64,000 nucleotides of DNA from Patescibacteria group bacterium (GTDB lineage: Bacteria > Patescibacteriota > Patescibacteriia > PEXW01). Location of the stretch: positions 1,296-65,295 of the forward strand of contig JBBTVB010000002.1 in assembly GCA_038063455.1 (NCBI GenBank). Reading direction: 5' to 3'. A model generated the notes under the pieces. It did not search any database. It had not been told where the DNA came from and was given only the letters and a program-made list of their open reading frames with translations. Positions 3,207 to 36,598 of the stretch are shown here, piece by piece. Within the stretch, counting starts at the first letter, position 1; each line of letters starts with the position of its first letter. The translations under genes were made by a program, and so were the position numbers.

Positions 3207-3251
3207 CGCGTCAGCAACATCTGCAGTGCACGCACTACAAGGAGGTGTCAC

Positions 3252-4136: not shown

Positions 4137-4157
4137 TTGACATTCTGAACCTTTACC

Positions 4158-4193
4158 GTCCCGACTTTTACTACAAAGTCGGGACGTTTTTTT
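4158..4193 (+). terminator. rho-independent terminator
   Basis: GTCCCGACTT / AAGTCGGGAC stem followed by a T7 run. Confidence 0.8.
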
Positions 4194-4273
4194 ATCCTAT
4201 GTATTATCACCTCTATAAATTCGAAACCCCTGGCGGAACTCATCCCGCCTGGGGTAGTTTTTGGAATGAAAAA

Positions 4274-10600: not shown

Positions 10601-13428
10601 ACCTCAACGCTGGCACCTACACCGTGCGTGAAGTGCAGCAGAACGGCTGGCTCCAAACCGCACCGCAAGGTGGTGAATGGACCATCCAGCTCGCCGTCAA
10701 CCAGGAAGTAAGTGGTAAAGACTTCGGCAACTTCCAGCTCGGTAAAATCTGGGGCTACAAGTACGAAGACAAAGATGGCGACGGCAACGTGGACCAGAGC
10801 GACGTGAAGAAAGACGGTTGGACTATCTGCTTGAATGGTCCGTTGCAAAAATGTGTTGTCACTGGAGAAAACACCCAGGATCATAATTGGCCAGATGGCT
10901 ACTATGAATTCACCGGTCTTACCGCTGGCAACTACACCGTTACCGAGCAGCGCGCCACCGGCTGGTACGTCGTGGCCCCGCAACTTACGGGCTACAACGT
11001 AGCCATTGATTCCGGTGATGTTGAGCAGAAGAACTTCTTCAACTTCAAGGGTTTTGACCTGACCGTGAAGAAGCTCATTGACGGCGATGCCAGTTTGCAA
11101 ACCACCGGCGACCAAACACCAGGCCAAAACTGGGAAATCCAACTCTGGAAGAATGGGCAGCCATGCACAGTGCAGACCTGTGGTGACTTTACAAAGTACA
11201 CAGATCAAAACGGTACAGCCACCTGGACGAACTTGCCATACGGCGAGTACGAGGTAAAAGAAATTTTCAACGGCAACGAATGGCAAGCCCTGCTCTCGGA
11301 CAACATCACCGTGCCAAACTGGAGCGATGACGACAGCAGCAAGACGGTTGGCGAATTCGATGCAATGTCTGGTACAAACGTGGAAGTCACGTTTATTAAC
11401 TGGAAGCGCGCGCCGGTGAAGATTGCTGGATACAAGATCGTCTGTGAAAACGAATCTTATCTCCCCGATTGGGCATACCACAATGCGCCAGGCAGCATCA
11501 CTGCTTCCACTGCACAGAACTTCGTGAACTCTGTAAATGCACAATACGAACATAATGTGTGCGAACTAGTCCCGGACTGGAACTTCCAGTGGGGTTTTAG
11601 TGACCAGGTCGGCAACCCGGGTGACAACACCCCCGAAGCCGCGGCCAACTGGCACACCTTTGCCGCAAATGGCACGCCGGTAACCATTGATGCCTTCACC
11701 GGCACCAAGAACCTGCGCGTCCGCGAAGTGTGGAATGACCTGCACATCCCCTTCGACGGCACCATCAACCCGAAAAGCGTCAAGATCGGCGCTGAGTTCT
11801 ACTGCGGCACAGACATTAAGAACTTTGACAACTACGAGTACGTAGATGGCGTGCAGTACGGTTTGAATGGCAGCCAGCCGACGTACTACTGCGTAGCCTT
11901 CAATGTTCGCCAGACCGGAACTGTGACTGTGCATAAAAACTTTGATGATAACGGTGATGGTGAGATTGACCGTGTTAATCCCGAAGAATGGACTTGGGAC
12001 GTCGTTGATGGTCAACAGAACAATGTTGGTAGTGCGACGCTAACCCTGCCTACAGGCAATTACAGTCTTTCTGAAGATGTTATCGCGGGCTACTCCACAA
12101 CCTGGAGCTGCACAAACGAAACTACGGGCCAAGGTACGGTTATTCCAGTGGCGGTAGGTTACAACCAAAATGTTACGTGTACATTCACGAACACCTTACC
12201 GAAATTAACAATTACCAAAACTGCTAACCCTGCGGTCGTCAACGGCAACCAAGACGTGACTTACACAGTCATCTGGTCGGTCGCTGGAGCCAAAGCCACC
12301 GATGTGGTGGTTACTGACCCCATTCCAGCCAACACCAGCTTCGTCTCCATGAGCTGCACAGGCACCGTAGGTACCTGCACCACCAGCACCACTGGCACGC
12401 CAGTGAGCTCGGTCAGCTGGAACCTCGGTACCCGTAACCCAGGCGAAAACGGCACACTCGTGCTCGTGGTAAAGACTGCGGTTTCGGTGCCGAATGGCTC
12501 GGTTATTCCGAACATTGCCAATATCAAGAGCGCCGAAGTTGACCCGGTATTTGCTCAAGCCGACGTGAAGGCTGCAACTGCTCCGGTGCTGCAAATTACC
12601 AAGACTGGCAGCGCAACAATCGTAAACCCCGGCGACCCGCTTACCTACACCGTCAAGGTGAAGAACGTGGGCACAGACACCGCCGTGAACGCCGTGGCAA
12701 CGGATACTCTCCCAGCCGGCTTCAGCTTTGTTAGCACCAGCCCGGTCGCCAACAGCATTGTTGGGCAGACAGCCACCTGGAATTTGGGCAACATGATTGT
12801 GGGCCAGGAAGTAACGCTTACCTACACCGTGAACGTTGCGCCAGGCACCACGGCCGGTGTCTACGACAACATTGCCAAAGCAAAGGCAGACAACGCGCCG
12901 GAAGTGAGCACCAAAGTGCCGGTAACCACCCGCGTACCACAAGTCTTGGGTGAAACCACCAGCCCGGTGTTAGAAATTTCCAAGAGCGTTAATAAGAAAG
13001 CCGTTACGCCTGGTACGGTTGTTACCTACACCGTTAAGGTAAAAAACAGCGGCACGGGCAGCGCGATCAATGTCGTGCTTCAGGATATCCTGCCACTCGG
13101 CTTTACCTTCGATGGCACCAGCAACACCAGCCAATCTTGGAACCTCGGCAACATTGCCGTCGGTGAAACCAAGACGGTGAGCTACAAGGTAAAGGTTGGT
13201 TCCAGCGTGCCAAACGGCGCGTACGAAAATCTAGCGCTGGCCACTGCAGACAACCACGGCAAAGTGACGGCTACTGCGCCGGTCCAAGTGAAACGCGGCC
13301 GCGTGCTTGGTGCCACAGTGGATACCGGGGCCGGTATTGCTGACTACGCCATTGCAGCCAGCGGTCTGGGACTCATTATCCTGGGCTACGTTATCACCCG
13401 CCGCAAGAACGGTAACATAACCGCTTAA
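7672..13428 (+). CDS. giant cell-surface protein (VWA + SdrD-B/Cna-B-like + DUF11 repeats) with C-terminal membrane anchor
   Basis: 1918 aa. N-terminal signal/TM segment. VWA MIDAS motif DTSGS in GLDIGLVVDTSGSVS. Ca-binding SdrD-B-like blocks (FEDENGNGVRNNGDDG, YEDKDGDGNVDQSD). Three DUF11-like repeats (L.ITKT...TYTV.V.N.G). C-terminal hydrophobic helix followed by RRKNG. The alternative start at 7702 (MPNL) is possible. Confidence 0.9.
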   Translation: MTYLFKSNWHMPNLIIKKSTKRRALKTINVISTLAIILNTGLVSAFINPTAASAADTVLNSPSENIENASGDSWNNASSAYANGGVAATDSSGERHRYYNFNFSIPNASSIDGISVKADAWSSDSSGCQLGVDLSWNSGSSWSNEKTQNLSGNEATYTLGGSSDKWGSHTWQPSEFSNANFRVRVRDIDPGQNCQDSATTSLDWLQAQIHYTEASVTPTPVANPALAQTCGLDIGLVVDTSGSVSTSEMTQMKTALTNFTNAFVGTPTVFSLSSFALESVVEKNFSRTPAQMAADISTDIPADGDGSTNWDGGLARGFSTFDPRADKANLIVIATDGSPNHYGYPDAVPSGPDLWEEALNKAIERANAIKTAGTRIVVVGIGDDSSDPSTPAQKLDKMKAISGPNVATVPANITTSTDVIKVTNFDDIGAALSAYVKQLCGGKILVQKQFENDPNASLAGYTFDVDGSPSNPAAQVTTATGSLAFNDMLNGTYSVTETVVQPNTTLASATCVNGNSPVGTLDLNGRTISGLAMGTDDTISCTFVNKLLPPPDGTLKVNKQFDDNGDGQVDRTNPQGWTWDITSGDQNIAGGTTKTLTAGSYGVSEDAIANYTATWSCNNQTSGTGTNFNVTVVANQAVQCAFLNTRNTGRIVFDKVVVGGSALDSAFTFTVNAQNYKDGDAATFLTGSYPLTEGAVTGYTLTGASGACSLGQNGVTLNVTTQGGTCTITNTRDTGTLIVHKDVLNPDGGAVADTHNFSVLLNAGNQKTIAEGTDATYNNLDTGTYTIVENADGDYTFVSYSADGDANVAGAQVTVTKGQTTHLTVTNKQKKATITIYKNVLNAAGNEVSDATAFTVQRTGGSNGSIAEGAPWAVQVNPGTYTFTEVANSNYTTTSTNPKQLTVGSNGTAEYTFVNKQKSSGISGKKFEDENGNGVRNNGDDGMDDWKIYLDLNNNDQWDNGEPYDWTDNNGYYSFSNLNAGTYTVREVQQNGWLQTAPQGGEWTIQLAVNQEVSGKDFGNFQLGKIWGYKYEDKDGDGNVDQSDVKKDGWTICLNGPLQKCVVTGENTQDHNWPDGYYEFTGLTAGNYTVTEQRATGWYVVAPQLTGYNVAIDSGDVEQKNFFNFKGFDLTVKKLIDGDASLQTTGDQTPGQNWEIQLWKNGQPCTVQTCGDFTKYTDQNGTATWTNLPYGEYEVKEIFNGNEWQALLSDNITVPNWSDDDSSKTVGEFDAMSGTNVEVTFINWKRAPVKIAGYKIVCENESYLPDWAYHNAPGSITASTAQNFVNSVNAQYEHNVCELVPDWNFQWGFSDQVGNPGDNTPEAAANWHTFAANGTPVTIDAFTGTKNLRVREVWNDLHIPFDGTINPKSVKIGAEFYCGTDIKNFDNYEYVDGVQYGLNGSQPTYYCVAFNVRQTGTVTVHKNFDDNGDGEIDRVNPEEWTWDVVDGQQNNVGSATLTLPTGNYSLSEDVIAGYSTTWSCTNETTGQGTVIPVAVGYNQNVTCTFTNTLPKLTITKTANPAVVNGNQDVTYTVIWSVAGAKATDVVVTDPIPANTSFVSMSCTGTVGTCTTSTTGTPVSSVSWNLGTRNPGENGTLVLVVKTAVSVPNGSVIPNIANIKSAEVDPVFAQADVKAATAPVLQITKTGSATIVNPGDPLTYTVKVKNVGTDTAVNAVATDTLPAGFSFVSTSPVANSIVGQTATWNLGNMIVGQEVTLTYTVNVAPGTTAGVYDNIAKAKADNAPEVSTKVPVTTRVPQVLGETTSPVLEISKSVNKKAVTPGTVVTYTVKVKNSGTGSAINVVLQDILPLGFTFDGTSNTSQSWNLGNIAVGETKTVSYKVKVGSSVPNGAYENLALATADNHGKVTATAPVQVKRGRVLGATVDTGAGIADYAIAASGLGLIILGYVITRRKNGNITA

Positions 13429-13434
13429 GTACGA

Positions 13435-14193
13435 ATGGTTGATCTGATTCCAGATCGCCCAACCGGGAAACGTGTTACCCACTCGCCGCCCTGCACACCA
13501 GCGGGGCGGCGAGTGCATGGTGTGCGTGCTGCAGGCTTCCTGATTATTGGCGTCGGCATTGTTGTGCTCTCTTTCCCCTTGTGGCCAATTATCCGCTACA
13601 AACTGGCAGGCCCTATAAGCACGCCCGAAGAGCCAGTCTTCCCCTACGAAAGCAATTTAATTGCGGCGGACGGCACTGTTGCCGTGCCGACAGCAGACAA
13701 CCCACTGCAAGTACTCACTAATGTGAAGCAGGCACTTAATGTGCCGGTACAGGCCCCCAAACGGGCCAAGGCCAAAGTACTTAAAAAAACCCGACCCGCA
13801 GATAACCGTCTGGTTATACCTAAAATTGGCGTTAACCTGCCTATTGTGGAAGGCACGGACAGCGAAGACGCACTTTGGAAAGGCGCCTGGCGAGTGGCGG
13901 ACTCTTCTAACCCCAAAGAAGGCGGCAACACTGTACTCTCTGCCCATCGCTTTCGCTACCGTCCGCCGTCGAACCTGACGCTATATTTGCTGGACCAGGT
14001 GAAGCCTGGCGATATTATGATTGTCTACTGGGAAGGCAAAGAATACGACTACCGGGTGGGGAAAACGAAAATTGTGCCGCGCGAGAACACGGATATTGCC
14101 GAGCCGACACTGGTACCACAGCTTACGGTTTTTACCTGCCATCCATTATTTTCGACCAAAGAACGACTGGTGGTGGTTGGGGAGCTTATATAA
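13435..14193 (+). CDS. sortase-family transpeptidase
   Basis: N-terminal TM helix. Catalytic His in NTVLSAHRF, Cys in LTVFTCHP (TLxTC-like) and Arg in ERLVVVG. It begins 7 nt after the giant gene. Confidence 0.85.
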   Translation: MVDLIPDRPTGKRVTHSPPCTPAGRRVHGVRAAGFLIIGVGIVVLSFPLWPIIRYKLAGPISTPEEPVFPYESNLIAADGTVAVPTADNPLQVLTNVKQALNVPVQAPKRAKAKVLKKTRPADNRLVIPKIGVNLPIVEGTDSEDALWKGAWRVADSSNPKEGGNTVLSAHRFRYRPPSNLTLYLLDQVKPGDIMIVYWEGKEYDYRVGKTKIVPRENTDIAEPTLVPQLTVFTCHPLFSTKERLVVVGELI

Positions 14194-22299: not shown

Positions 22300-22375
22300 C
22301 GGGGTGTAGCGCAGTTGGTAGCGCGCGTCGTTCGGGACGACGAGGTCCCGGGTTCAAGTCCCGGCACCCCGACCA
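22300..22375 (+). tRNA. tRNA-Pro (anticodon CGG), CCA encoded
   Basis: Acceptor CGGGGTG/CACCCCG. Anticodon stem CGTCG/CGACG with loop TTCGGGA. T-arm CCGGG-TTCAAGT-CCCGG. Confidence 0.9.
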
Positions 22376-22494: not shown

Positions 22495-23700
22495 TTAGTG
22501 TAGGTCCTCTACGCGCTCACCATTTGATGGTGTTGTTGTGTTTTTACCTCGCACAATAAACTTCGCGGCCAGTAGCGTCGCAATCGGTACGGCCAGCACC
22601 AGTGCCGAGCTACCCACTAAAGTCCGAATTACCTCTTCAGCAACCATTTCGCTGTTCAGCGTGGTCCACAGTGGCACCTCGGTATTCATACTAAAAAGTA
22701 AAAGGAGTGGGAAGGCAGCACCGGCATAGGCCAAGACTAAGGTATTCACCAGCGAGGCAATGTGCTCACGGCCAACAACCAATCCGCGACGCACGAGCTC
22801 ACGTCTGGAAAGATCCGGATTCGCCTCGTGGATTTGCGCCACGGCAGCAGTTTGACCGGTGGTAATGTCATCCAGCACGCCCAGCGCACCAATAATAATC
22901 CCGCCCAGGAGCAGGCCTTTCAGGTTAAGATTTTCCAGCGCGCCAAATTGTAAGTAAAACGCTTCTTCGGTACCCACGCCCGAAAGTTTTGCCAGGGAAA
23001 CAAAGAGTAGCGCCAAACCCGCAGCCAAGCCGAGCGTGATGAGCGTACTACCCAGCGCAATGCTGGTGCGCCGGTTAAAGCCGTGCGCAACGTACAACGA
23101 GATGACGGCGATGATGACCGCGCCGACCAAGCTCATACCTAGGGGGCTACTGCCGTTAAGAATCCGGGGGATAATAAAACTGGCGAGCACGACAATGCTC
23201 ACGGCTATGCCGATAATTGACGTAAAGCCTCGCCAGCGCCCGAAGAAGACCACCAGGCCAAAGAATATTGCCACCACCCAAGCCAGCGAGGGCAATCGAT
23301 AGTGGTCGGCAATGTAGTAGGCCACTTCACCATCCACCCCGACATTTTTGAGCAGCACCACGCGCTCGCCGACTGTAACTTTCTGGTAGTCCCGGATAGT
23401 TATTTCCCCACCATGTGCAACGGTAATGCGCTTGCCCTTTTCCGGACCGCGAGTTATTTCCAGTTCAACTTCCTGGTACGGCTGCGGCACGCCGCCTAGC
23501 TCCGTCATCCCCTGGTCAGGAATAGCGACAACTTTCGCGACTACGTATTCATCGGGAACAACCAGGGTTTCGGCTGCAACCGGCTGGCCCAGGCTGTCTT
23601 CTACAAAGACCTCTTCGGTTTCTTGCGCGCGCGCCGCCCCAGCCCAAAGCAACGCTACACAGAACCCGGCGAGAAGTGCTGCCCCAAGGCGAATAGGCAT
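22495..23700 (-). CDS. YibE/F-like polytopic membrane protein
   Basis: Signal peptide, a ~120-aa extracytoplasmic domain, then about 8 TM helices. The family call comes from overall pattern memory only. Confidence 0.55.
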   Translation of the reverse strand: MPIRLGAALLAGFCVALLWAGAARAQETEEVFVEDSLGQPVAAETLVVPDEYVVAKVVAIPDQGMTELGGVPQPYQEVELEITRGPEKGKRITVAHGGEITIRDYQKVTVGERVVLLKNVGVDGEVAYYIADHYRLPSLAWVVAIFFGLVVFFGRWRGFTSIIGIAVSIVVLASFIIPRILNGSSPLGMSLVGAVIIAVISLYVAHGFNRRTSIALGSTLITLGLAAGLALLFVSLAKLSGVGTEEAFYLQFGALENLNLKGLLLGGIIIGALGVLDDITTGQTAAVAQIHEANPDLSRRELVRRGLVVGREHIASLVNTLVLAYAGAAFPLLLLFSMNTEVPLWTTLNSEMVAEEVIRTLVGSSALVLAVPIATLLAAKFIVRGKNTTTPSNGERVEDLH

Positions 23701-23714
23701 ACGCGGAGCGTAGC

Positions 23715-24464
23715 CTACTCCAACAACAGGAGCAAGGCCATGACGCCGATGCCGACGAGCAGGAAAAGAAATTGCAAAAAGGACCGTCCGGTATGCTCTT
23801 CGCGATGAATCTCCGGAATCAAGTCAGCCGCGGCAATGTAAATAAACCCGCCAATGGTCAGCGGTACCAAGTACTGCGCCACGGCTTCAACTTGCTCGCC
23901 AATGACCAGCGTCACAACCGCACCGACAATTGCGGCACAGGCCGTGAGGAAGTTGAAAAATAACGCCTTGCGTTTGGTGTAGCCGGCATGCAGCAATATG
24001 CCAAAATCACCGATCTCTTGCGGTATTTCGTGCAGGACAACCGCAACCGTCGTGGCTACACCCACCGCCGGGTCGATCAGAAAACTCGCGGCAATAATCA
24101 CGCCATCCAAAAAGTTGTGCACTGCGTCGCCGACCAGGTTAATCGTGCCGACCGGATGCTGGTGTTGCTCGGTTGATGGTAAGTGGCAGTGCCGCCAGAA
24201 CAACACCTTCTCCAAAAGGAAAAATGCAACAATACCGCCCAGTACCATGACCGACACGCGGGTCACATCGCTAGCTTCTTCCATTACTTCTGGCAGCAAG
24301 TGCAGGAAGGCGTCACCGAGCAACGCGCCGGCCGCAAAGCTGACAAGAAAGAGCAAACCTTTACGCAACCGATCGAAATGCAAAGATAGCGTCGTTATGC
24401 CAATAAGCGAGACGAGGCTAACAATGATGACGCTGACGAGAGTGGCAAACCATGGGGTAGTCAT
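23715..24464 (-). CDS. zupT: ZIP-family zinc transporter
   Basis: HNFLDGV and HEIPQEIGDFGILL signatures. 8 TM helices. Confidence 0.85.
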   Translation of the reverse strand: MTTPWFATLVSVIIVSLVSLIGITTLSLHFDRLRKGLLFLVSFAAGALLGDAFLHLLPEVMEEASDVTRVSVMVLGGIVAFFLLEKVLFWRHCHLPSTEQHQHPVGTINLVGDAVHNFLDGVIIAASFLIDPAVGVATTVAVVLHEIPQEIGDFGILLHAGYTKRKALFFNFLTACAAIVGAVVTLVIGEQVEAVAQYLVPLTIGGFIYIAAADLIPEIHREEHTGRSFLQFLFLLVGIGVMALLLLLE

Positions 24465-24473
24465 AGCGTGTGC

Positions 24474-24875
24474 TTAAGCTGAGAGTGGAGAAGTGCAATT
24501 GGGACAAATCCCGTAAAATTCCAAGGCGTGGCTTACACTATGAAACCCGGCCCGTCTGGCAATGCGCCGTTCTTCAGTCTGTAAATGGGCGCCGACTTCG
24601 ATATCCTCAATGCGCTGGCATGACCGGCAAATGATGTGATGGTGGTGTGCTTTCTTGCGCTCGTAGCGGGTGACGCCATCGGCAAAGCGACTTTGCTCAA
24701 CCTTGCCGGCCTCAACGAGTTTTTCCAATTGCCGGTAAAGCGTAGTTTTGTGGGCCATGACACCCGCTGCCCCAAGTTGTTGCCGCAGGGCGGTTTCGCT
24801 CACCGGGCCCGGCACTTGGTCAAGCAGCCGCAAAACTGATTGATTTATAGTGGTTTTTCTAAAGAAAATAGCCAT
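24474..24875 (-). CDS. Fur-family metalloregulator (Zur-like by context)
   Basis: wHTH N-terminal domain. HHHHIICRSC...CPNC metal-site pattern. First gene of an operon with the ZIP transporter. Confidence 0.85.
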   Translation of the reverse strand: MAIFFRKTTINQSVLRLLDQVPGPVSETALRQQLGAAGVMAHKTTLYRQLEKLVEAGKVEQSRFADGVTRYERKKAHHHHIICRSCQRIEDIEVGAHLQTEERRIARRAGFHSVSHALEFYGICPNCTSPLSA

Positions 24876-24882
24876 GCGTGCA

Positions 24883-24911
24883 TTCTAATGCAACTCGGTT
24901 GCATTTGTCAA
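24883..24911 (-). promoter_or_regulatory. promoter of the fur-family/ZIP operon with an embedded palindromic operator
   Basis: Minus strand TTGACA-17-TTAGAA. The perfect palindrome ATGCAAC-TCG-GTTGCAT (24888-24904) fills the spacer. The ATG lies 7 nt after the -10. Confidence 0.6.
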
Positions 24912-25007
24912 ATGGCCTGCAAATTTTGACAATCCCCTAGCCAGTGTGTATTCTGAAGCATCCGTAAATTGCACATTGATACTTCAACTCCACGGAAGGA
25001 GAAACCG

Positions 25008-25229
25008 ATGCAAAGTTTGCTACGAATAATTCGGCAACGGCTGCAAAGGCAAAAAACTGTGCCGAATAACCCTGACGAAGAAGCACCTGTCGTTGGAAAC
25101 TACAACCATCAGACTGAATTGCTGCCCCCAAATCACAATCCGCTCGAAATGTGGGAGGGCGTAGCAGAGCACGTGCGCAGGAAGGATATGTTACGCCAGA
25201 ATACTGAAACACCGGTCAATGCATGTTGA
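25008..25229 (+). CDS. small hypothetical protein, 73 aa
   Basis: Promoter TTGACA-17-TATTCT at 24926-24954. GGAAGGAGAA SD 4 nt before the ATG at 25008. Confidence 0.45.
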   Translation: MQSLLRIIRQRLQRQKTVPNNPDEEAPVVGNYNHQTELLPPNHNPLEMWEGVAEHVRRKDMLRQNTETPVNAC

Positions 25230-25443
25230 CCACAAACGTATAACCTTTTTAGAAACGAGGCATGATGCCGCCTAAGCCCCCACACCCAGCGGTCCGCCGG
25301 GGACGCCAAGAAGCACGGTTCGTTCGAACACGACATGAAGAGCCCCACGTTATTGCCAAGAGGCAACCACACGCGCATGTTCCCAATCACAGTCCCCGCT
25401 CGCAGCTGGTGAAAAGGTAAGTACAAAACTCATCAAAAACATT

Positions 25444-25474
25444 GTCTCGCTACTTCGGTAGCGGGACTTTTTTT
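25444..25474. terminator. bidirectional rho-independent terminator
   Basis: GTCTCGCTAC-TTCG-GTAGCGGGAC stem followed by T7. A-rich on the other strand. Confidence 0.8.
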
Positions 25475-25775
25475 AATCTATGCCGAGTTGGGCCTTGGCA
25501 TCCTCGCTCATCTTACTTTTATCCCAGGGCGGGTCAAAAGTTATTTCGATGCGCGCATCATGCACGCCAAGCAGGCCACGGATTTTGCTGCCCGTGGTGT
25601 CGACAAAGTAGTCGAGCAGCGGGCAGCCCGGGGTGGTAAGCGTCATCAGTACGTGCACGTCGCTTTTTTCGTTTATGCTCACGTTGTAAATCAAACCTAA
25701 ATCAACAACGTTCACCCCCAGTTCTGGGTCATCACAGGTTTTCAGCACATCCATAACCTGGGCTTCGGTAACCAT
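25473..25775 (-). CDS. DUF59/MIP18-family Fe-S assembly protein (SufT-like)
   Basis: DPELGVNVVDLGLIY...TLTTPGCPL signature. Confidence 0.8.
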   Translation of the reverse strand: MVTEAQVMDVLKTCDDPELGVNVVDLGLIYNVSINEKSDVHVLMTLTTPGCPLLDYFVDTTGSKIRGLLGVHDARIEITFDPPWDKSKMSEDAKAQLGID

Positions 25776-25776
25776 A

Positions 25777-26481
25777 CTAGGCCGTCAGGTTAAAGTGATC
25801 GCCCAGGACTTTACCAATCACGTAGCCGAGCACGGCGGCGGAGAGTGAAATAGTGGTCATCTCTATGCCGCTGCGAATTGCCGACCGGTTAACCAAACGC
25901 GCTTTGCCCACGCCCACAAAAAAGAGGGCCAGCACGGTAAGGATGACAGACAGCCACAACGCCGTGGCCACCGGCAAGAACAGGTACGGGCCAATGGGAA
26001 TAATGCCGGCAATGAGATACGTAACGCCCATGTAGAGCGCGTTCAAACGCGGCTGCTCTTTACCTGGTAAATCCAGGTGCAAACCGTGCGCGTTCAACTC
26101 GCTAAAGAATAACTTGTCGTTGGGACGTACCCGTTTGAGTAAGACGCGAATCTCGGCAAGTTTGAAACCGCTCTTCTTATACGCCGCGGTTAACGCCCGC
26201 AGGGCTTTGGGCCGATTGCGCTTGAGTGCGGCCGCTGCCCGCTGCAGCGCATCCACATCTGCTTCTTGTTTGGACTTTGAGGAGAGGAAGGTGCCGGCAG
26301 CCATGGAAAGCGACTCAACGAAAATGACGACAATACCGGAAAGGATAACCAAAAAACGGTTTGACGTGCCGCCCGCCACCCCGGAAATAACCCCCAGCGT
26401 GGAAACCAGACTGTCTTCAATGCCAAAAACCACCTCGCGGATTTCCATTTGCAACCGAGCGCGGAATGTTTGTTTTGGCAT
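25777..26481 (-). CDS. VIT1/CCC1-family iron/manganese transporter
   Basis: N-terminal R..VFG..D.LVS..G.ISG block and five TM helices typical of VIT. Confidence 0.8.
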   Translation of the reverse strand: MPKQTFRARLQMEIREVVFGIEDSLVSTLGVISGVAGGTSNRFLVILSGIVVIFVESLSMAAGTFLSSKSKQEADVDALQRAAAALKRNRPKALRALTAAYKKSGFKLAEIRVLLKRVRPNDKLFFSELNAHGLHLDLPGKEQPRLNALYMGVTYLIAGIIPIGPYLFLPVATALWLSVILTVLALFFVGVGKARLVNRSAIRSGIEMTTISLSAAVLGYVIGKVLGDHFNLTA

Positions 26482-30029: not shown

Positions 30030-30293
30030 ATGCAAAGCTACACGGTATACATCCTACAAAGTAGGAAGGATGGAGGGTACTACATCGGACAAACTGAAAA
30101 CCTAGGAGCTCGAGTCAAGAAACATGAACTAGGTCAAGTGCGGTCAACAAAGAATAGACGACCGTTCGTGTTGATTCAATCAGAAGGTTACAAGACAAGA
30201 GGTGAAGCTAGAAAAAGGGAAAACTACTTAAAAAGTCTGAAAGGAGGAAACGAGTTCAAAAAAATTATCAGTAACTATTCCGGGATCGTCTAA
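30030..30293 (+). CDS. GIY-YIG nuclease-family protein, 87 aa
   Basis: YTVYILQS..GGYYIGQTENL..R..KH motif. Looks AT-richer than its flanks. The last 5 codons and the TAA stop lie inside tRNA-Gln, at its positions 1-15. Confidence 0.8.
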   Translation: MQSYTVYILQSRKDGGYYIGQTENLGARVKKHELGQVRSTKNRRPFVLIQSEGYKTRGEARKRENYLKSLKGGNEFKKIISNYSGIV

Positions 30294-30352
30294 CGGTAGG
30301 ACTTCAGGTTCTGGTCCTGAATATCCTGGTTCGAATCCAGGTCCCGGAACCA
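30279..30352 (+). tRNA. tRNA-Gln (anticodon CTG), CCA encoded
   Basis: Acceptor TCCGGGA/TCCCGGA. D-stem GTC/GAC. Anticodon stem TCAGG/CCTGA with loop TTCTGGT. T-arm CCTGG-TTCGAAT-CCAGG. Confidence 0.9.
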
Positions 30353-30366
30353 CGCATTGCTAATCC

Positions 30367-30915
30367 ATGATTGACCACTCACAACTCACTCATCTGGGCG
30401 ACCTCACCTGGCCGGATGTTTTTGAGATTTGGCGGAAGAATGAAGCTGACTCCGAGGCTTGGCGTACAGCCTACACGGCGCGCGGGTTCGACTCCTGGGC
30501 AGCCTGGCGTATGAGCTATGCGGAACCGCTCAAACTGCCGACGCTTTCCTGGGCTTTGTACCAAGTAGACGAACCTGTCGCTACTGTCCCGCAATTTTTC
30601 GGCGGGCCGTTTCGAAGCTGGGTGGAACGCTACTACAATGGGGCGCCGCGTCTTGCCTTCCGGACCCTGGCCAGTCAGTCGACACCCCAGGCGAGTAAAA
30701 AAATACAACAACTTGTACAAAAGTTTCCAAGTCAGACTACCATTACCGGAATTCAGCTGGGGAACAGCACTATCATCGTGGAAGGCATGCACCGTTGTAT
30801 TGCTTTGGCAATTGCCAAAGCAACCGGCAAGAATATTTCCACACAATTACATCTCGTCCTAGCCGAACATCCCGATACAGAGCTGCCGCTGGTAGGACAA
30901 AGCACAAAGGACTAG
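30367..30915 (+). CDS. hypothetical protein, 182 aa (possible ParB/Srx-like C-terminal motif)
   Basis: Long ORF starting 14 nt after tRNA-Gln. IIVEGMHRCIALAIA weakly recalls the (D/E)GxHR motif of ParB-like nucleases. Confidence 0.5.
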   Translation: MIDHSQLTHLGDLTWPDVFEIWRKNEADSEAWRTAYTARGFDSWAAWRMSYAEPLKLPTLSWALYQVDEPVATVPQFFGGPFRSWVERYYNGAPRLAFRTLASQSTPQASKKIQQLVQKFPSQTTITGIQLGNSTIIVEGMHRCIALAIAKATGKNISTQLHLVLAEHPDTELPLVGQSTKD

Positions 30916-30943: not shown

Positions 30944-30973
30944 TTGACCCCTTCGCTCCGGTGGGTGTAGAAT
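30944..30973 (+). promoter_or_regulatory. sigma70-like promoter of the riboswitch-led operon
   Basis: TTGACC-18nt-TAGAAT, with a TG two nucleotides upstream of the -10. Confidence 0.6.
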
Positions 30974-30984
30974 TTGCGTACAGT

Positions 30985-31205
30985 TCTGTTCCACGAGGAT
31001 ACGATCAGGGAATGGGGTGAGGCCAGCCAGGCTATTCCCCAGCAGTCGCGCTACTGTAATCTGCCCAACGGCAGAGAGCCAGAGTACTGATCCAGAGCTG
31101 AAACAGTATACCCTTCGCGAAATAAGGGAATGACTCATACGAAGACTCGATATGAGTCTATCGTTATGACCATTTTCCTCCCCGCGAGCAAATGGTTCTT
31201 TTATA
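30985..31205 (+). promoter_or_regulatory. cobalamin (B12) riboswitch-like leader with terminator expression platform
   Basis: AGGGAATGGGGTGAGG...CAGCAGTCGCGCTACTGTAA...GAGCCAGAGTACTGATC resembles the core AGGGAA/GGGUGAG/GCAGCCCCCGCUACUGU and the B12 box. GATCAG (31003) pairs with CTGATC (31086). A terminator-like stem ACCATTT/AAATGGT plus TCTTTTAT lies at 31168-31204. Confidence 0.75.
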
Positions 31206-31228
31206 CATACGAAAGATTGGAGTAATAC

Positions 31229-31801
31229 ATGAAAGAACAGTCAGTAGCAAGAAGGACTTTTTTAAGAATGGCAGGACGAGGACTCATCACCATCGTCACC
31301 GGTGGCACGATACTTAGCCTCTTGGAATCTTGTGGCAATGATACAGACCTTGGACTCAATCCCAAGGAAAACGGATTTTCACTGGAACCCACAGGCGCAA
31401 CCTATGAAGGTCGACGAGTATTCCGTACGGTTAGCCCTGCAACCAACATCCACCGTACGCTATGGCCCCCGCCACCGCCCGACTGCCACGTGGAAAAAGA
31501 ATTCCCGGTGAACTTCATCCCACCAGGCGAATCCATAACTATGCTGGAAGCACTGGTTGGTGCAGGCCACACACTTGAGCTGGTGGAGTACCCAGGCCTT
31601 GGCTGGTACGTTATCCGGATAGATAACGGCTGCCACCCCAGTGGCAAGTACGGCTGGGTATTCAACGGGCTAGGTGCCAGCGGACCGATACCTATTGATG
31701 GATCGGTGAGCAACATCCCCCTTTCCTTTGGCAACTACGTGCAGTACGAGTACAACCAACCAGTTCCGCAAAGAAACATACCGGCTGATGCAACCTACTA
31801 G
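31229..31801 (+). CDS. Tat-signal lipoprotein with DUF4430-like (transcobalamin beta-domain-like) domain
   Basis: ARRTFLRMAG twin-arginine motif and an LLESC lipobox-like site. ITMLEAL..AGHTLELVEYPGLGWYVIRIDN...YGWVFNG...FGNYVQYEY fits the DUF4430 pattern. Confidence 0.65.
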   Translation: MKEQSVARRTFLRMAGRGLITIVTGGTILSLLESCGNDTDLGLNPKENGFSLEPTGATYEGRRVFRTVSPATNIHRTLWPPPPPDCHVEKEFPVNFIPPGESITMLEALVGAGHTLELVEYPGLGWYVIRIDNGCHPSGKYGWVFNGLGASGPIPIDGSVSNIPLSFGNYVQYEYNQPVPQRNIPADATY

Positions 31802-31805
31802 CAAC

Positions 31806-31846
31806 GGAAGGGAGAGCGACACAACCTCTCCCTTCCCCAATTTTTC
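31806..31846 (+). terminator. terminator-like hairpin between the first and second genes of the cluster
   Basis: GGAAGGGAGAG / CTCTCCCTTCC 11-bp stem followed by CCAATTTTTCT. Confidence 0.5.
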
Positions 31847-31877
31847 TCACAATCCCCTCGTTTTATAACCCTGCCAT

Positions 31878-33647
31878 ATGAAAAAAATATATAGCGTAGT
31901 GCTGCTGCTCACCTTACTGGTTAGCTTTGCGCCGGTCCGCGCAGCTGTGGACCAAAGCACGGTCGCCTACTTGCAACAAATCAGCCAGAACGCCTGGACC
32001 ACCCAAGCCCTGGTGGCAGCTGGGGTGCAAAATGTACATATTGACTACCTGGCTGGCACGAACCCAGTCACGGCTAGCGACTATGCCAAAACCATCCTAG
32101 CTCTGGCTGCGGCCGGCAAAAATCCAGCCGCCTACAATGGCAAAAACTTTCTCACGGGTTTATCGGCCTTGTACCAGAGCAACCAGCTTGGCGACCTAAC
32201 CTTGCTCTCTGACGACTTCTGGGGGTTGCTGGCCTTGGGTGCAGCCGGCGTGGGTGCGCAGGATACCGTCGTAACTGGAGTTCGGCAGTTTATTGCCAGC
32301 CACCAGAATAGCGATGGCGGCTGGTCGTATGCCCCGGCCACCGAGAGTGATACCAACGACACTGCCGCGGCAGTTATGGCGCTAGTCGAGGGCGGTCTGG
32401 CGGCAAGTAATGCCAAAATCCAATCAGCCATTACCTACCTCCGCAACCAGCAAAATACCGACGGTGGCTTTGCCTTTACCAAAGGCTTTGAATCCGACAG
32501 CGCCTCTGACGCCTGGGTTATTGCGGCGCTCAAAAAGGTCGGCGTGGATGCCGCCAGCTGGCAGGTCAATGGAAAAAATCCAGTAACGCACTTAGAAAGC
32601 TTGCGCCTGGACACTGGCGCCTTTACCTGGGTAGCTTCCAACCGCCAAGCCAACCCGTTGATGACCGCGTATGCCGCCGTTGCGCTAAGCGGTAAGAGCT
32701 TCCCAGTGCTGCGCTACACGCAAGAGGTTGGCCCGCTACCAGTAACCACGCAGCTGCGCATCGAGGCGCCGGCCGGCACCCTCTGCGACACGGCAGTGCT
32801 GGCTGCAACAGCGTTGGAGATTTTGGAAAAAGGCGCGGCGCTGTGCAACTACACCTACCAAGTGGTGAACACGACCTTGGGCAAGTACGTGCAGTCCGTC
32901 AACGGTGTAGCCGCGGCCGGCAACCAGGGTTGGCTGTACCGCGTTAACTGGCAGGCACCGGCGGTGGGTGCGGCTGACTACAGCCTGCAACCCGGTGACT
33001 ACGTCATGTGGTCATTCGGCAAGTCCAGCGACGTGCCGATCAAGCTAACCTTGGCGACTGACCCGCTACGCGTCGGTCAAGAACGCACGGCAACGGTGGA
33101 ACACTTTGATACCAGCTGGCACCCGACCGCCGGCGCGCAACTGATTGTCGGCAGCCAGCACTACACTACAGATGCGGCTGGACATGCGGTCATCGCGCCT
33201 GCCGCCGCCGGCAGCTACAACGCCTATGCCGAAAAAACTGATGCCATTCGCAGCAGCCGCGTCACGCTGACCGTTGTTACGGGCGCCAGCCAAACTGTGG
33301 ACCTTTCGGTAAATATTGATAACCCAATTGTCGGCGGTGACAGCATTGGCTTTATCGTCACGCCCGATGCCGTCACGTTTGGCACACTCAAGCCTGGACA
33401 ATCGGCCACCGGTGCACTCAACGTAAAAAACATCGGGCAGACGAATATTCGAGTGGAAGCGGCAGTGAGTGGCGACGCATTGTTCCAACAGTCGCTCTCG
33501 CTCAACGCCGGTGCCTGGGCAGACTACGAAGCCAACCTGAACAAAGCGCAAGATGCCAATGTCCAGCTAGCCCTGGCCGTGCCGCAGACCTACCAGGACG
33601 CAGGCCAAAAAACCGGCCAGCTCATTTTCTGGGCCAGCGCCCGCTAG
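31878..33647 (+). CDS. secreted alpha/alpha-toroid (prenyltransferase/terpene-cyclase-like repeat) + DUF4430 + Ig-like protein
   Basis: Signal peptide. Repeats SDGGWSYAP..ESDTNDTAAAVMAL and TDGGFAFTKGFESDSASDAWVIAAL. DUF4430-like block YVQSVNGV...GWLYRVNW......Y.LQPGDYVMWSFG. Beta-rich C-terminus. Confidence 0.7.
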   Translation: MKKIYSVVLLLTLLVSFAPVRAAVDQSTVAYLQQISQNAWTTQALVAAGVQNVHIDYLAGTNPVTASDYAKTILALAAAGKNPAAYNGKNFLTGLSALYQSNQLGDLTLLSDDFWGLLALGAAGVGAQDTVVTGVRQFIASHQNSDGGWSYAPATESDTNDTAAAVMALVEGGLAASNAKIQSAITYLRNQQNTDGGFAFTKGFESDSASDAWVIAALKKVGVDAASWQVNGKNPVTHLESLRLDTGAFTWVASNRQANPLMTAYAAVALSGKSFPVLRYTQEVGPLPVTTQLRIEAPAGTLCDTAVLAATALEILEKGAALCNYTYQVVNTTLGKYVQSVNGVAAAGNQGWLYRVNWQAPAVGAADYSLQPGDYVMWSFGKSSDVPIKLTLATDPLRVGQERTATVEHFDTSWHPTAGAQLIVGSQHYTTDAAGHAVIAPAAAGSYNAYAEKTDAIRSSRVTLTVVTGASQTVDLSVNIDNPIVGGDSIGFIVTPDAVTFGTLKPGQSATGALNVKNIGQTNIRVEAAVSGDALFQQSLSLNAGAWADYEANLNKAQDANVQLALAVPQTYQDAGQKTGQLIFWASAR

Positions 33648-33651
33648 CCCT

Positions 33652-34149
33652 ATGCGCCGCTTGCTCTTACTAATTGGTTGCCTGGCACTATTCTGGCCGC
33701 TGGGCCTGCACGCTGCGGGTATCCTGGTACAACCCAGCAGCCTGCGGGTCGAGGTGCCGGTGGGCCAAACGCGTGAAGAAAAATTTACTGTCCAAAACCT
33801 TACGGACGCGCCGGCAACATTCACGGTCTCGGCCGATGAATTGCCAGAGGTCTTCCAGATTCCTGACAACAAATTCAGTTTGACCGGGCAGGAACGCAAA
33901 ACCGTAAACGTACGCATAACCCCAACTGCCGGCGGCGTCTCCACCACCAATCTTTCGATTGTGGCCGCAAGTAGCGAACCAACCACTTTTAACGCTGCGG
34001 CCGGGGTCAAAGTGCCGGTCACGCTGGTGGGTTTACCCAAGGTCAAAAAATATCCCTGGACGCTATTTGCGCTTATCGCTGGGGTGACGGTGACGCTTGC
34101 AGGAGGGCTTGGCTATATCTACTGGGGACGACGAAACCCGGTGCAGTAG
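33652..34149 (+). CDS. small secreted beta-sandwich-like protein with C-terminal TM anchor
   Basis: Signal peptide, alternating beta pattern, then a C-terminal helix plus GRRNP. It begins 5 nt after the upstream stop. Confidence 0.55.
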   Translation: MRRLLLLIGCLALFWPLGLHAAGILVQPSSLRVEVPVGQTREEKFTVQNLTDAPATFTVSADELPEVFQIPDNKFSLTGQERKTVNVRITPTAGGVSTTNLSIVAASSEPTTFNAAAGVKVPVTLVGLPKVKKYPWTLFALIAGVTVTLAGGLGYIYWGRRNPVQ

Positions 34150-34181: not shown

Positions 34182-35519
34182 ATGACACCCGAAACCCAAC
34201 AATCCGGCTTTACCCCGCCCCACCTGGCGGGCTCTTCTCGTAAACATACAAACACCGTAGCACCTGACACAGGTGGAGCGGGGTTTACTGGCCTGGGCAT
34301 TGCGCCCCAGCTGCTCGACGCGCTCGATAAGCTCAAGTTTACTACGCCCACGCCAGTCCAGAAGCAATCCATCCCTATTGGCATAGAGGGCAAGGACCTT
34401 ATTGCCATTGCGCAGACCGGCACAGGCAAGACGTTGGCGTTTGGCATCCCGGTTATCCAGCGGCTGGCCCAAGTCAAAGGCCGCGGACTCATCCTGTTGC
34501 CGACCCGCGAGCTGGCTATCCAAGTAGACGAATCGTTACAGGCAATTGGCCGCACCATTGGTTTGCGCACTGCCGTACTCATCGGCGGCGCGTCCATGCA
34601 CGTCCAGCGCCAGCACTTGCAGCGCAAGCCGCACGTCATTATTGCTACGCCCGGCCGCTTGCTCGATCACGTGGAGCAGCGCATGGTTAGCCTCTCCGAC
34701 ATTCGCATCCTGATTCTGGATGAAGCCGACCGCATGCTGGACATGGGCTTTGCCCCACAAATCAAACGCATCTTTGCTGTGCTGCCCACTGAACGGCAAA
34801 CCATGCTGTTCTCAGCCACCATGCCGCAAGAAATTGTGACTATTGCCCAAAAGCACATGAAGATTCCCTTGCGCGTCGAAATTGCGCGCGCGGGCACAGC
34901 CGCCGACAAGGTAACGCAAGAAGTATTCTTCATTGCCAAAGAAGCCAAGGTGCGGCTATTGGAAGCACTCCTGACGCAATACCCCGGTTCGGTGTTGGTC
35001 TTTACCCGCACCAAACATGCGGCACGCAAACTTGCGGGCTATGTAAAAACCATGGGGCACGCGGCAGCGGATATCCATTCGGACCGCAGTTTGGCCCAGC
35101 GCCGACAGGCCTTGGAAGGTTTTAAAACTGGTCGCTACCGCGTGCTCGTGGCCACCGACATTGCTGCCCGCGGCATAGATGTAACCGGCATTGAACTGGT
35201 GGTCAATTTTGACCTGCCAATGAACACCCAAGACTACGTCCACCGCATTGGCCGCACGGGCCGAGCCGGACGCAGCGGCCGGGCCATTTCGTTTGCTACC
35301 TTTGACCAGCGGCGCGACGTGCGGGACATCGAACGGCTCATTCGCACGCAACTACCTATTAAGCCGACACCGGAACTACCACCGGCCCGCGCGCACGAAC
35401 CCGAAATGCCACCCGATCGGCAGCAACGCCAACCACACGCGTGGCCCGCACGACGACCTATGGCCGGGGGCCGAGGTGGTGGATTCCGCGGCGGACAGCG
35501 TCGGGGTCGCGGACGATAA
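34182..35519 (+). CDS. DEAD-box ATP-dependent RNA helicase
   Basis: Q-motif, AQTGTGKT, PTRELA, DEAD, SAT and HRIGRTGRAG, with an Arg/Gly-rich tail. Confidence 0.9.
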   Translation: MTPETQQSGFTPPHLAGSSRKHTNTVAPDTGGAGFTGLGIAPQLLDALDKLKFTTPTPVQKQSIPIGIEGKDLIAIAQTGTGKTLAFGIPVIQRLAQVKGRGLILLPTRELAIQVDESLQAIGRTIGLRTAVLIGGASMHVQRQHLQRKPHVIIATPGRLLDHVEQRMVSLSDIRILILDEADRMLDMGFAPQIKRIFAVLPTERQTMLFSATMPQEIVTIAQKHMKIPLRVEIARAGTAADKVTQEVFFIAKEAKVRLLEALLTQYPGSVLVFTRTKHAARKLAGYVKTMGHAAADIHSDRSLAQRRQALEGFKTGRYRVLVATDIAARGIDVTGIELVVNFDLPMNTQDYVHRIGRTGRAGRSGRAISFATFDQRRDVRDIERLIRTQLPIKPTPELPPARAHEPEMPPDRQQRQPHAWPARRPMAGGRGGGFRGGQRRGRGR

Positions 35520-35584
35520 TTGCACCGTATTGCTTTTCGGCTAGTGATAGCGTACACTATGGGCGGCTTTTGCTCATACTTTTT

Positions 35585-36598
35585 ATGCGTACCAAAATCA
35601 TTGCAACTATTGGCCCTCGGTCTGAATCACCCGAGCTGCTCCGCGCGTTGGCAGCTGCTGGCATGAACATTGCCCGCATGAATTTCTCACACTGCACGCC
35701 AGCCGAATATATTGCCCGCGCCGCACTACTTCGCACCATTGCTGCAGAGACCAAGCAGGAGCTGCACATCATGCAAGACCTCAAAGGCCCACGCTTACGC
35801 GTCGGGAACCTTACCGCAGAAGGGCGGACCTTCCTGGCTGACGAAACAATTACCTTCTCTACCAAGCAAGGCGCAGCCGAAACCTTGTGGATTGACGACC
35901 CCTACCTGCACATCGACATCCAGCCAGCCGAACCACTGTTTCTGGCCAATGGCGCCATCGAAATGGTGGTCACGGATGTGCAAGATGACCGCATTACTAC
36001 CAGGGTCATCCGCGGCGGCAAGGTATTTAAAAACGCGGCCGTAAATGTGCCGCGCACGCATTTAACGACCGCAGGTCTAACTGAGAAAGACATTACCGAC
36101 GTACAATTCGCCCTGGAGCAAGGTGTGGACTACGTTGCACTCTCGTTCGTGCAGTCTGCAGATGACGTGAACCGGCTCAAAGACATTGTCAAAGGCCGCG
36201 CAAAAATCATTGCAAAAATTGAGCGGCGCGTTGCTCTGAGTCACATCGACGAAATTATCCAAGCTGCCGACGGCATCATGGTAGCTCGCGGTGATCTTGG
36301 GGCAGAGCTGCCCGTGGAAGAAGTGCCGTTCGTCCAGAAAAATCTTATTCGCCATGCCGCCTGGCACAACAAGCCGAGTATCGTGGCCACCCAGATGCTC
36401 TTCTCTATGGTGGACCACGCCCATCCCACCCGGGCCGAAGTGTCTGATGTTGCCAACGCCGTGTGGGATGGGGCTGATGCGGTCATGCTCTCGGATGAAA
36501 CTGCCTCCGGCCAATTCCCCATCGAATCACTCAGCACCATGGCGCGCATTGTAAAACGCACCGAACACTTTCGTTACCGCATGGAATCTGCGCTTTAA
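35585..36598 (+). CDS. pyk: pyruvate kinase, short form (337 aa)
   Basis: MRTKIIATIGP.S......L...GMN.ARMNFSH, then MVARGDLG.E and ATQML.SM. Start moved to 35585. It ends without the usual C-terminal domain. Confidence 0.8.
   Translation: MRTKIIATIGPRSESPELLRALAAAGMNIARMNFSHCTPAEYIARAALLRTIAAETKQELHIMQDLKGPRLRVGNLTAEGRTFLADETITFSTKQGAAETLWIDDPYLHIDIQPAEPLFLANGAIEMVVTDVQDDRITTRVIRGGKVFKNAAVNVPRTHLTTAGLTEKDITDVQFALEQGVDYVALSFVQSADDVNRLKDIVKGRAKIIAKIERRVALSHIDEIIQAADGIMVARGDLGAELPVEEVPFVQKNLIRHAAWHNKPSIVATQMLFSMVDHAHPTRAEVSDVANAVWDGADAVMLSDETASGQFPIESLSTMARIVKRTEHFRYRMESAL

Follow-up and report, generated by a model that had tools for sequence, protein, structure and literature searches.

A probable B12 acquisition locus of Patescibacteria with a divergent cobalamin-type riboswitch and a transcobalamin-like protein

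How does a bacterium of the Candidate Phyla Radiation (CPR) obtain vitamin B12? CPR genomes are minimal, a B12-requiring ribonucleotide reductase is commonly needed for DNA synthesis, and to our knowledge CPR bacteria are unable to make B12. Riboswitch-controlled B12 uptake genes are commonplace. The question is raised here by a locus on the forward strand (positions 30944–34149) of a 64-kb stretch of a Patescibacteria (CPR) metagenome-assembled genome, the whole of which we call the window. An initial annotation, made from the sequence alone, recognized in this locus a promoter, a leader of ~245 nt and three genes (genes 1–3). All are present where it placed them, with the three open reading frames (ORFs) confirmed and the leader measuring ~249 nt from ~30980 to the ATG at 31229 (Table 1). 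We consider it probable, with roughly three chances in four, that this is a B12 (corrinoid) acquisition locus of Patescibacteria, which a cobalamin riboswitch shuts down in the presence of B12.

The leader and its expression platform

The strings that had suggested a cobalamin riboswitch all occur in the leader as described: AGGGAA (31007–12), GGGGTGAGG (31014–22), CAGCAGTCGCGCTACTGTAA (31040–59) and the B12-box-like GAGCCAGAGTACTGATC (31076–92), which pairs with GATCAG (31003–08). The Rfam match that the initial annotation anticipated fell short of the curated threshold. A gathering-threshold scan of the whole window returned three tRNAs only and no cobalamin match, and under a permissive cut-off the leader matched RF00174 over its full length at 28.3 bits versus a gathering score of 31.5 (E = 2e-5, in a small search).

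Comparison with related leaders gave a different result. A covariance model (R1) built from five relatives with the window left out, whose E calibration is rough, scored the window leader at 66.1 bits (E ~5e-16), its sole match in the 64 kb on either strand. RNAalifold applied to the five relatives alone recovered P1, P3, P4, P5, P6 and a hairpin 3′ of the aptamer, and 15 of 40 pairs showed compensatory changes; 45 invariant columns are common to the window and six related loci (L081, L083, L085, L091, L211 and L212). The core 18-mer GCAGTCGCGCTACTGTAA (GCAGYCGCGCTACTGTAA) is the heart of canonical long-form cobalamin riboswitches from unrelated soil taxa; a metagenome scan with this 18-mer returned mainly canonical riboswitches of unrelated taxa, together with one new gene 2 locus (L091). 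In an 11-sequence model-guided alignment, which was fitted to the model and hence leans towards the model structure, 89.9% of cells were paired, compared to 71% for column shuffles and 38–51% for slid partners; compensatory changes occurred at 26 of 40 pairs, and the observed values were reached by none of 500 shuffles. P1 of the window (CAGUUCUG/CAGAGCUG) forms a perfect 8-bp helix whose sequence is wholly unlike the AUAAUUU/AAAUUAU of the relatives. The B12 box and P1 as Infernal had aligned them to RF00174 were not adopted, and the pairing from the minimum free energy (MFE) fold and from the relatives was used instead.

Like the cobalamin riboswitches of Rfam clan CL00101 (RF00174 Cobalamin, RF01482 AdoCbl and RF01689 AdoCbl-II), the window leader has the core elements GGGAA, GGUG and GCAGUCGCGCUACUGUAA, the B12 box AGCCAGA..ACUGAU and the P1–P6 architecture, followed 3′ of the aptamer by a hairpin whose loop is complementary to L5 and then by a terminator. 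It departs from them in its P6, a simple 6-bp hairpin without the peripheral extension, in an extra hairpin within the P4/P5 loop, and in the unusual weakness of its terminator. By comparative evidence only, the aptamer is a genuine, divergent cobalamin-type riboswitch, and the RF00174 threshold misses the CPR subtype. The riboswitch assignment of the initial annotation is thus upheld by model R1, the shared core and the covariation, and not by Rfam's own threshold.

The promoter ahead of the leader has a predicted transcription start at ~30980, and its −10 element ends 7 nt before helix P1. Matches to the promoter consensus are not significant by themselves (3 found versus 1.9 expected); by eye, promoter-like boxes of the TTGACA type lie at the equivalent place, 5′ of the aptamers, in most relatives.

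A kissing loop between L5 and L13 is known from published cobalamin riboswitch structures, and the P13-like hairpin 3′ of the window aptamer matches that arrangement. All aptamers whose L5 is CGCG have a hairpin with a TTCGCG loop on their 3′ side, and this holds for canonical riboswitches from other phyla too. L5 and the P13 loop of the window can pair over 5 bp (UCGCG:CGCGA), and CGCG:CGCG loop complementarity of 4–5 bp, counted as a contiguous helix, is found in nine of nine leaders of the CGCG class; leaders with other L5 sequences have 2–3 bp. A putative L5:P13 kissing loop is predicted for the window leader from this complementarity.

The expression platform is less clear-cut. When P13 was enforced in constrained folding, the terminator hairpin T1 formed (31168–31197, −8.7 kcal/mol), and the 5′ arm and loop of T1 can pair alternatively with 31113–31130 as an anti-terminator. 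In the unconstrained MFE fold, AGGGAA (31125–30) pairs with UUUUCC of the T1 5′ arm and CUUCGCG pairs with CGCGAG of the T1 loop, abolishing T1 (−33.3 vs −30.6 kcal/mol). The relatives have the same three-hairpin order with much stronger terminators (−17 to −26 kcal/mol). T1 contains 2 G-C pairs only and was missed by a simple terminator scan, and the unconstrained MFE fold also pairs the Shine-Dalgarno (SD) region with 31106–13, which in this model is ill-suited to an ON state. The terminator-type platform put forward in the initial annotation is accordingly plausible but weak: constrained folding yields a coherent candidate switch, built around a terminator that is itself weak.

Transcription from ~30980 would let the aptamer fold. 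Structure and comparison suggest that binding of a corrinoid would bring the L5 CGCG (31047–50) into a kissing contact with the P13 loop CGCG (31116–19); this contact would lock the P13 hairpin and keep AGGGAA (31125–30) from invading the next stem, so that T1 could form and transcription would stop ahead of gene 1. Without B12, the anti-terminator would form and gene 1 would be transcribed.

Gene 1 and the hairpin before gene 2

Gene 1, annotated by NCBI as "hypothetical protein AAB515_00530", had been described as a twin-arginine translocation (Tat)-signal lipoprotein consisting essentially of one DUF4430 domain. The Tat-like motif and the lipoprotein Cys35 are present, and no Pfam match (E ≤ 0.1) or NCBIfam match to DUF4430 was obtained, leaving that part of the description unconfirmed. 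A word-indexed homology search with gene 1 returned itself alone, and an exhaustive HMMER search of 1.84 billion representatives added a single true relative, P0123, a 186-aa lipoprotein with 39% identity to gene 1 over its C-terminal 95 residues (BLASTP E = 2e-16). The 886-bp contig that encodes P0123 repeats the layout of the window, with an ORF, a hairpin and then an ORF starting with a signal peptide. Gene 1 is a real, rare lipoprotein. Comparison by hhalign gave a probability below 1% against five small DUF4430 proteins; against a 27-sequence DUF4430 profile of the gene 2 family it gave an in-register alignment with P = 2.8e-4 and a probability of 41%. In one-to-one hmmsearch tests, the DUF4430 profile matched gene 1 with E = 0.0026 and P0123 with E = 2.5e-5. 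A single-sequence AlphaFold (AF2) model of gene 1 was unusable (pLDDT 32). The C-terminal domain of gene 1 is possibly a very divergent SLBB/DUF4430 fold, judging from these profile comparisons.

The position between riboswitch and gene 2 holds small lipoproteins in other loci as well (L004 2470–2928, L211 3449–3937 and L209 192–752, alongside 31229–31801 in the window). BLASTP of gene 1 against the proteins in this slot of L004 and L211 was not significant, and, the pair of gene 1 and P0123 excepted, the slot lipoproteins are not alignable with one another. A strong hairpin lies 3′ of the lipoprotein ORF in all four loci. The slot looks like a rapidly evolving cassette that may be exchangeable.

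In the window this hairpin, T2, bears on how far riboswitch control extends. The initial annotation had cautioned that a hairpin before gene 2 might separate genes 2 and 3 from the leader, and the caution was well placed: T2 has a perfect, G+C-rich 11-bp stem (31808–31838, −20.6 kcal/mol), followed by the T-run CCAATTTTTCT, and probably acts as a terminator or an attenuator. It may thereby leave genes 2 and 3 outside riboswitch control. On one reading, the riboswitch would govern gene 1 only: T2 would stop all transcription, and a separate unit made up of genes 2 and 3, B12-independent or differently regulated, would start in the 76-nt spacer. The strength of T2, the similar hairpins 3′ of the small lipoprotein ORFs of L004, L211 and L209, and a −10-like hexamer, TATAAC (31864–69, found by eye), available for a separate unit, all fit this arrangement. 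TATAAC, however, lacks the final T and a −35 partner, and a promoter scan found no promoter-like site at 31229–31878. The T-run begins 4 nt past the stem, a usual arrangement in partial terminators, and relatives that have no ORF of the gene 1 type carry gene 2 immediately 3′ of the riboswitch, from which B12 control of gene 2 appears ancestral. We therefore hold a full separation of genes 2 and 3 to be a serious though less likely alternative, and favor T2 as a partial terminator that lowers the expression of genes 2 and 3 relative to gene 1, because gene 2 stands directly behind the riboswitch where the slot is empty. Genes 2 and 3 would then be transcribed as far as the polymerase reads through T2. 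An origin of T2 as a displaced ancestral riboswitch terminator was considered and rejected: its arms are purine (5′) and pyrimidine (3′), reversed with respect to the terminators CCCCUUUCUC/GAGAGAGGGG in the relatives, and in L211 a complete riboswitch terminator coexists with a distinct hairpin beyond the ORF.

The gene 2 and gene 3 products

Gene 2 (100% identical to an NCBI entry annotated as "DUF4430 domain-containing protein") encodes a secreted protein in which an alpha/alpha toroid and an SLBB/DUF4430 domain are followed by two Ig-like domains (Table 1). Pfam identified DUF4430 (PF14478) at residues 312–381 (E = 4.6e-10; 40.3 bits, gathering score 23.8) and, in the toroid, Prenyltrans (E = 3e-8) as well as SQHop_cyclase. 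The AF2 model, built on 23 homologues, has a pLDDT of 86.5. When this model was compared with the PDB by Foldseek, the top 15 matches were all transcobalamin, intrinsic factor or haptocorrin (E = 1.4e-12 to 4.3e-10), with 402–444 aligned columns over both domains; squalene cyclases and prenyltransferases came next (~1e-6), aligning with the toroid alone. Pfam, AF2 and Foldseek thus agree on the transcobalamin/intrinsic factor architecture, with an Ig-like tail, that the initial annotation had proposed. PF01122 (Cobalamin_bind) is not among the Pfam matches of gene 2 at E ≤ 0.1, and its identity to the B12 carriers is ~14%; one distant toroid homologue, P0106, does carry PF01122. As modeled, the gene 2 product has the fold of a B12 carrier, but by sequence it falls outside the eukaryotic family.

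The eukaryotic carriers (PF01122 + PF14478; PDB codes 2BB5, 2PMV and 4KKI) are the best structural matches of gene 2 in the PDB and share its order of alpha6/alpha6 toroid and then beta domain. Gene 2 differs from them in its two additional C-terminal Ig-like domains and in that its ligand binding is predicted only, and a dedicated membrane-anchored gene 3 partner would take the place of receptor-mediated endocytosis. Homologues of gene 2 number ~100 (35–50% identity) and come nearly all from Patescibacteria. Cys303 and Cys323 are invariant, which together with the signal peptide fits an extracellular location.

Gene 3 had been predicted to encode a small anchored beta-sandwich protein. Its Ig-like matches (ASH, Cep192 and choice-of-anchor-D), all below cut-off, and its C-terminal hydrophobic helix agree with that description. 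All 15 loci whose sequence extends past gene 2 have a gene 3 homologue directly 3′ of it, and we propose that the gene 3 product is the membrane tether for an otherwise anchorless gene 2 protein.

Proteins of this kind have been predicted before. The SLBB superfamily goes back to Burroughs, Balaji, Iyer and Aravind (2007; PMC1796856), who defined it and predicted computationally that secreted bacterial proteins combining an alpha/alpha toroid with an SLBB (= DUF4430) domain scavenge B12. They described Ig-fold additions, paralogous SLBB proteins in one operon, hosts without B12 synthesis and operons with CbiO and CbiQ, and proposed that animals got transcobalamin from bacteria. The concept of the B12-scavenging module, termed uncharacterized in the initial annotation, is therefore not new; in a literature search of incomplete coverage we found no experimental test after the 2007 prediction and no account of B12 acquisition in CPR. 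Gene 2 shares with those proteins the secreted toroid-SLBB fusion, the Ig-fold additions and the predicted scavenging of B12, and paralogous SLBB proteins within one operon and hosts unable to synthesize B12 are further points in common. The earlier systems were described with CbiO/CbiQ-type energy-coupling factor (ECF) modules, mostly in Firmicutes and archaea, whereas the present locus belongs to the CPR, has no ECF module and has as partners the Ig-like anchor and, in relatives, DUF6580, BtuR and NrdJ.

The resemblance of the toroid to terpene cyclases and prenyltransferases, in Pfam as in Foldseek, raises the alternative that these proteins bind something else, such as cobinamide or other corrinoid precursors, another tetrapyrrole, an isoprenoid or a glycan, and that the link to B12 is merely regulatory. 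Archaeal SLBB proteins may scavenge a different metabolite (PMC1796856), and the B12 transporter CbrT also transports cobinamide (PMC5997447). Against this stand the Foldseek ranking, in which B12 carriers precede terpene enzymes by six orders of magnitude over both domains, and the position of the genes behind B12 riboswitches and, in relatives, beside BtuR and NrdJ. A catalytic DxDD-type context was not seen in gene 2, though no search aimed at DxDD was made. We regard another ligand as improbable, and capture of B12 by the gene 2 product as the preferred reading.

Table 1. Positions of the features of the locus within the window.
Feature	Coordinates	Strand	Details
Sigma-70-type promoter	30944–30973	+	−35 TTGACC 30944–30949, 18-nt spacer, −10 TAGAAT 30968–30973; 10/12 match
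Cobalamin riboswitch aptamer	30981–31100	+	Sub-threshold RF00174, model R1, shared core, covariation
Helix P1	30981–88/31093–31100	+	
Helix P2	30990–99	+	
Helix P3	31003–08/31087–92	+	
Helix P4	31013–17/31037–41	+	Hairpin inserted at 31021–33
Helix P5	31042–46/31053–57	+	Loop L5 CGCGCU 31047–52
Helix P6	31060–65/31070–75	+	
B12 box	31077–92	+	AGCCAGAGUACUGAUC
Regulatory hairpin (P13-like)	31111–31128	+	CCCUU, loop CGCGAAAU, AAGGG; loop CGCG complementary to L5
Intermediate hairpin of expression platform	31133–31159	+	GACUCAUA...UAUGAGUC; from folding; counterpart in relatives
Weak intrinsic terminator T1	31168–31203	+	GACCAUUU, 14-nt loop, AAAUGGUU, then UUCUUUUAU
Gene 1, 190-aa lipoprotein	31229–31801	+	RR-TFL Tat-like motif, Cys35; SD GGAG 31219–22
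Strong hairpin T2	31808–31850	+	GGAAGGGAGAG...CUCUCCCUUCC, then CCAAUUUUUCU; between genes 1 and 2
Gene 2, 589-aa secreted protein	31878–33647	+	Pfam, AF2, Foldseek; Sec signal peptide, alpha/alpha toroid ~aa 26–275, SLBB/DUF4430 beta-grasp ~289–385, two Ig-like beta-sandwiches ~386–467 and 492–588
Gene 3, 165-aa protein	33652–34149	+	Signal peptide, one Ig-like domain, C-terminal transmembrane helix

Related loci, transport and the route of B12

Fifteen related loci were collected, 14 of which have enough upstream sequence for a riboswitch check; a scan of genome contigs was dominated by Streptomyces toroid proteins, with L001–L015 alone useful. An aptamer of the cobalamin clan lies 5′ of the gene 2 homologue in all 14. 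Seven of these aptamers exceed an Rfam gathering score (L001–L005, L087 and L088). Others are sub-threshold (L081, 24.1 bits; L083, 26.8 bits; L086, 32.1 bits for RF01689), the riboswitch of L085 has no Rfam score, and the remaining ones were recognized by sequence and model R1. L081, L083, L085 and L086 thus have clear CPR-subtype riboswitches under the Rfam gathering scores, which standard annotation would miss. On an Anaerolineales contig, L016, a riboswitch (2384–2520; RF00174, 66.2 bits) lies just 5′ of a toroid-domain protein (match at 3001–4548); B12 control of toroid proteins therefore reaches beyond the CPR.

Gene order in L081, L083, L085, L091, L211 and L212 is NrdJ, riboswitch, gene 2, gene 3, BtuR, a small DUF4430 protein, DUF6580 and a PilT-like ATPase, and L210, cut just 5′ of gene 2, has the same genes from gene 2 through DUF6580. 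The PilT/T2SSE-type ATPase gene (345 aa) is always 3′ of DUF6580 in full operons (L081 9153–10190, L083 9084–10121, L085 9076–10113, L211 8046–9083, L212 6750–7787). Minimal loci, with gene 2 and gene 3 only, are those of the window, L001, L004, L086 and L087.

DUF6580 is present in 10 of the 15 related loci (for example, L081 8545–9084, L083 8432–8983, L085 8510–9043 and L088 7791–8324). This family (PF20221), of six-transmembrane size and with over 4,357 members, most of them patescibacterial, carries the NCBI name "putative transport protein". Its profile matched one membrane protein in the PDB, a 182-aa chain of 6FNP (E = 6.7e-4 with 4 sequences, 1.1e-4 with 31). 6FNP is ECF-CbrT, the B12 transporter of L. 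delbrueckii (PMC5997447), and from its size we infer that the 182-aa chain is the S-component CbrT. DUF6580 is thus a putative distant homologue of the B12 ECF S-component CbrT. No ECF A or T genes were found in the related loci carrying DUF6580. The B12 uptake cluster of L. delbrueckii is nrdJ-cbrS-cbrT-pduO (PMC5997447), and the operon of the CPR relatives resembles it in having NrdJ, an adenosyltransferase and a small CbrT-like membrane protein. It differs in that the CPR adenosyltransferase is of the CobA/BtuR type and not PduO, and in adding a transcobalamin-like binder and an anchor; none of the genes that the two clusters share is in the window.

The initial annotation had called the window locus transporter-less. 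In the window this held: tblastn with DUF6580, BtuR, NrdJ and the small DUF4430 protein of L081 and L083 gave no matches, and among the 46 ORFs, of 60 in the window, that were scanned with Pfam there were no ABC, ECF or TonB-dependent B12 components and no B12 enzyme. For the system as a whole it did not hold, since 10 of the 15 related loci have DUF6580 in the same operon.

Several observations weigh against B12 acquisition as the function of the locus. They include the sub-threshold aptamer, the weakness of T1 and the SD pairing in the unconstrained fold, the short loop complementarity outside the CGCG class, which makes the case for a kissing loop weak there, the position of T2, and the lack of a PF01122 match and the low identity of gene 2 to the B12 carriers. 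In addition, B12 use by the window organism is deduced from relatives only, because a transporter, a B12-dependent enzyme and BtuR were not found in the 64 kb, and for the whole gene 2 family both binding and regulation are predictions only, from sequence and models.

That the leader is a decayed, non-functional riboswitch in a locus being lost could explain the 28.3-bit score, a T1 far weaker than the relatives' terminators and the missing BtuR, small DUF4430, DUF6580 and NrdJ genes, but is very improbable, given that all core nucleotides and six helices are intact (P1 perfect despite its divergent sequence), that genes 1–3 are intact ORFs in a minimal layout shared with four other loci, and that close relatives with full operons (L081, L083 and L085) are also under the Rfam threshold, which makes the low score a property of the subtype.

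If the locus does serve B12 acquisition, the gene 2 product would be exported and, in the manner of transcobalamin, may capture a corrinoid between its toroid and its SLBB/DUF4430 domain. It would be held at the cell surface by its own Ig-like tail and the membrane-anchored gene 3 product, with the gene 1 lipoprotein as an accessory, fast-evolving surface component and possibly a second SLBB-type binder. Import would need a transporter encoded outside the window, which in relatives is probably the co-operonic CbrT-like DUF6580; BtuR would then adenosylate the cofactor for class II ribonucleotide reductase.

Elsewhere in the window are tRNA-Tyr(GTA) (769–855, −), tRNA-Pro(CGG) (22300–22375, +) and tRNA-Gln(CTG) (30279–30352, +). 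The last of these lies ~600 nt 5′ of the riboswitch promoter, and between them is a 182-aa ORF without annotation (30367–30915). Downstream of gene 3, ORFs for a DEAD-box helicase (34182–35519) and pyruvate kinase (35441–36598, GTG start), both on the + strand, overlap by 79 nt; the true start of the pyruvate kinase is probably further 3′ than 35441. At 7672–14193 (+), a 1918-aa surface protein with VWA, SpaA/prealbumin-like, SdrD_B, DUF11 and CARDB domains is encoded with a sortase gene directly 3′, and the pair resembles a sortase-dependent CPR locus for an adhesin or a pilin-like protein. A metal-homeostasis block at 22495–26481 (−) comprises YibE/F, a ZIP transporter, a Fur-family regulator and a VIT1 iron transporter.

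What is new here is the CPR-specific form of the system, with its sub-threshold riboswitch subtype, obligatory Ig-like anchor and fast-evolving lipoprotein slot and, in relatives, the link to the CbrT-like DUF6580 family, BtuR and NrdJ. A broader, tentative proposal, to which we give well under even odds, is that the CPR own a dedicated, lineage-wide apparatus for B12 piracy, of which the window holds the minimal form: a transcobalamin-like capture protein kept on the cell surface by its own Ig-like membrane anchor, a rapidly diversifying lipoprotein slot and import by a solitary DUF6580 without an operonic ECF module. The riboswitch-controlled lipoprotein slot might tune corrinoid or host specificity. 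The locus and its relatives provide a concrete, testable set consisting of a riboswitch, a transcobalamin-like binder, an Ig-like anchor, SLBB proteins, DUF6580 and BtuR, and any function assigned to DUF6580 would apply to more than 4,000 family members. The gene 2 family bears on the 2007 prediction that animal B12 carriers descended from bacterial surface scavengers. If the piracy proposal is true, bacterial and animal B12 carriers would share, beyond their fold, a mechanism of capture and hand-off, and obligate epibionts would gain a concrete route for taking a cofactor from their hosts.

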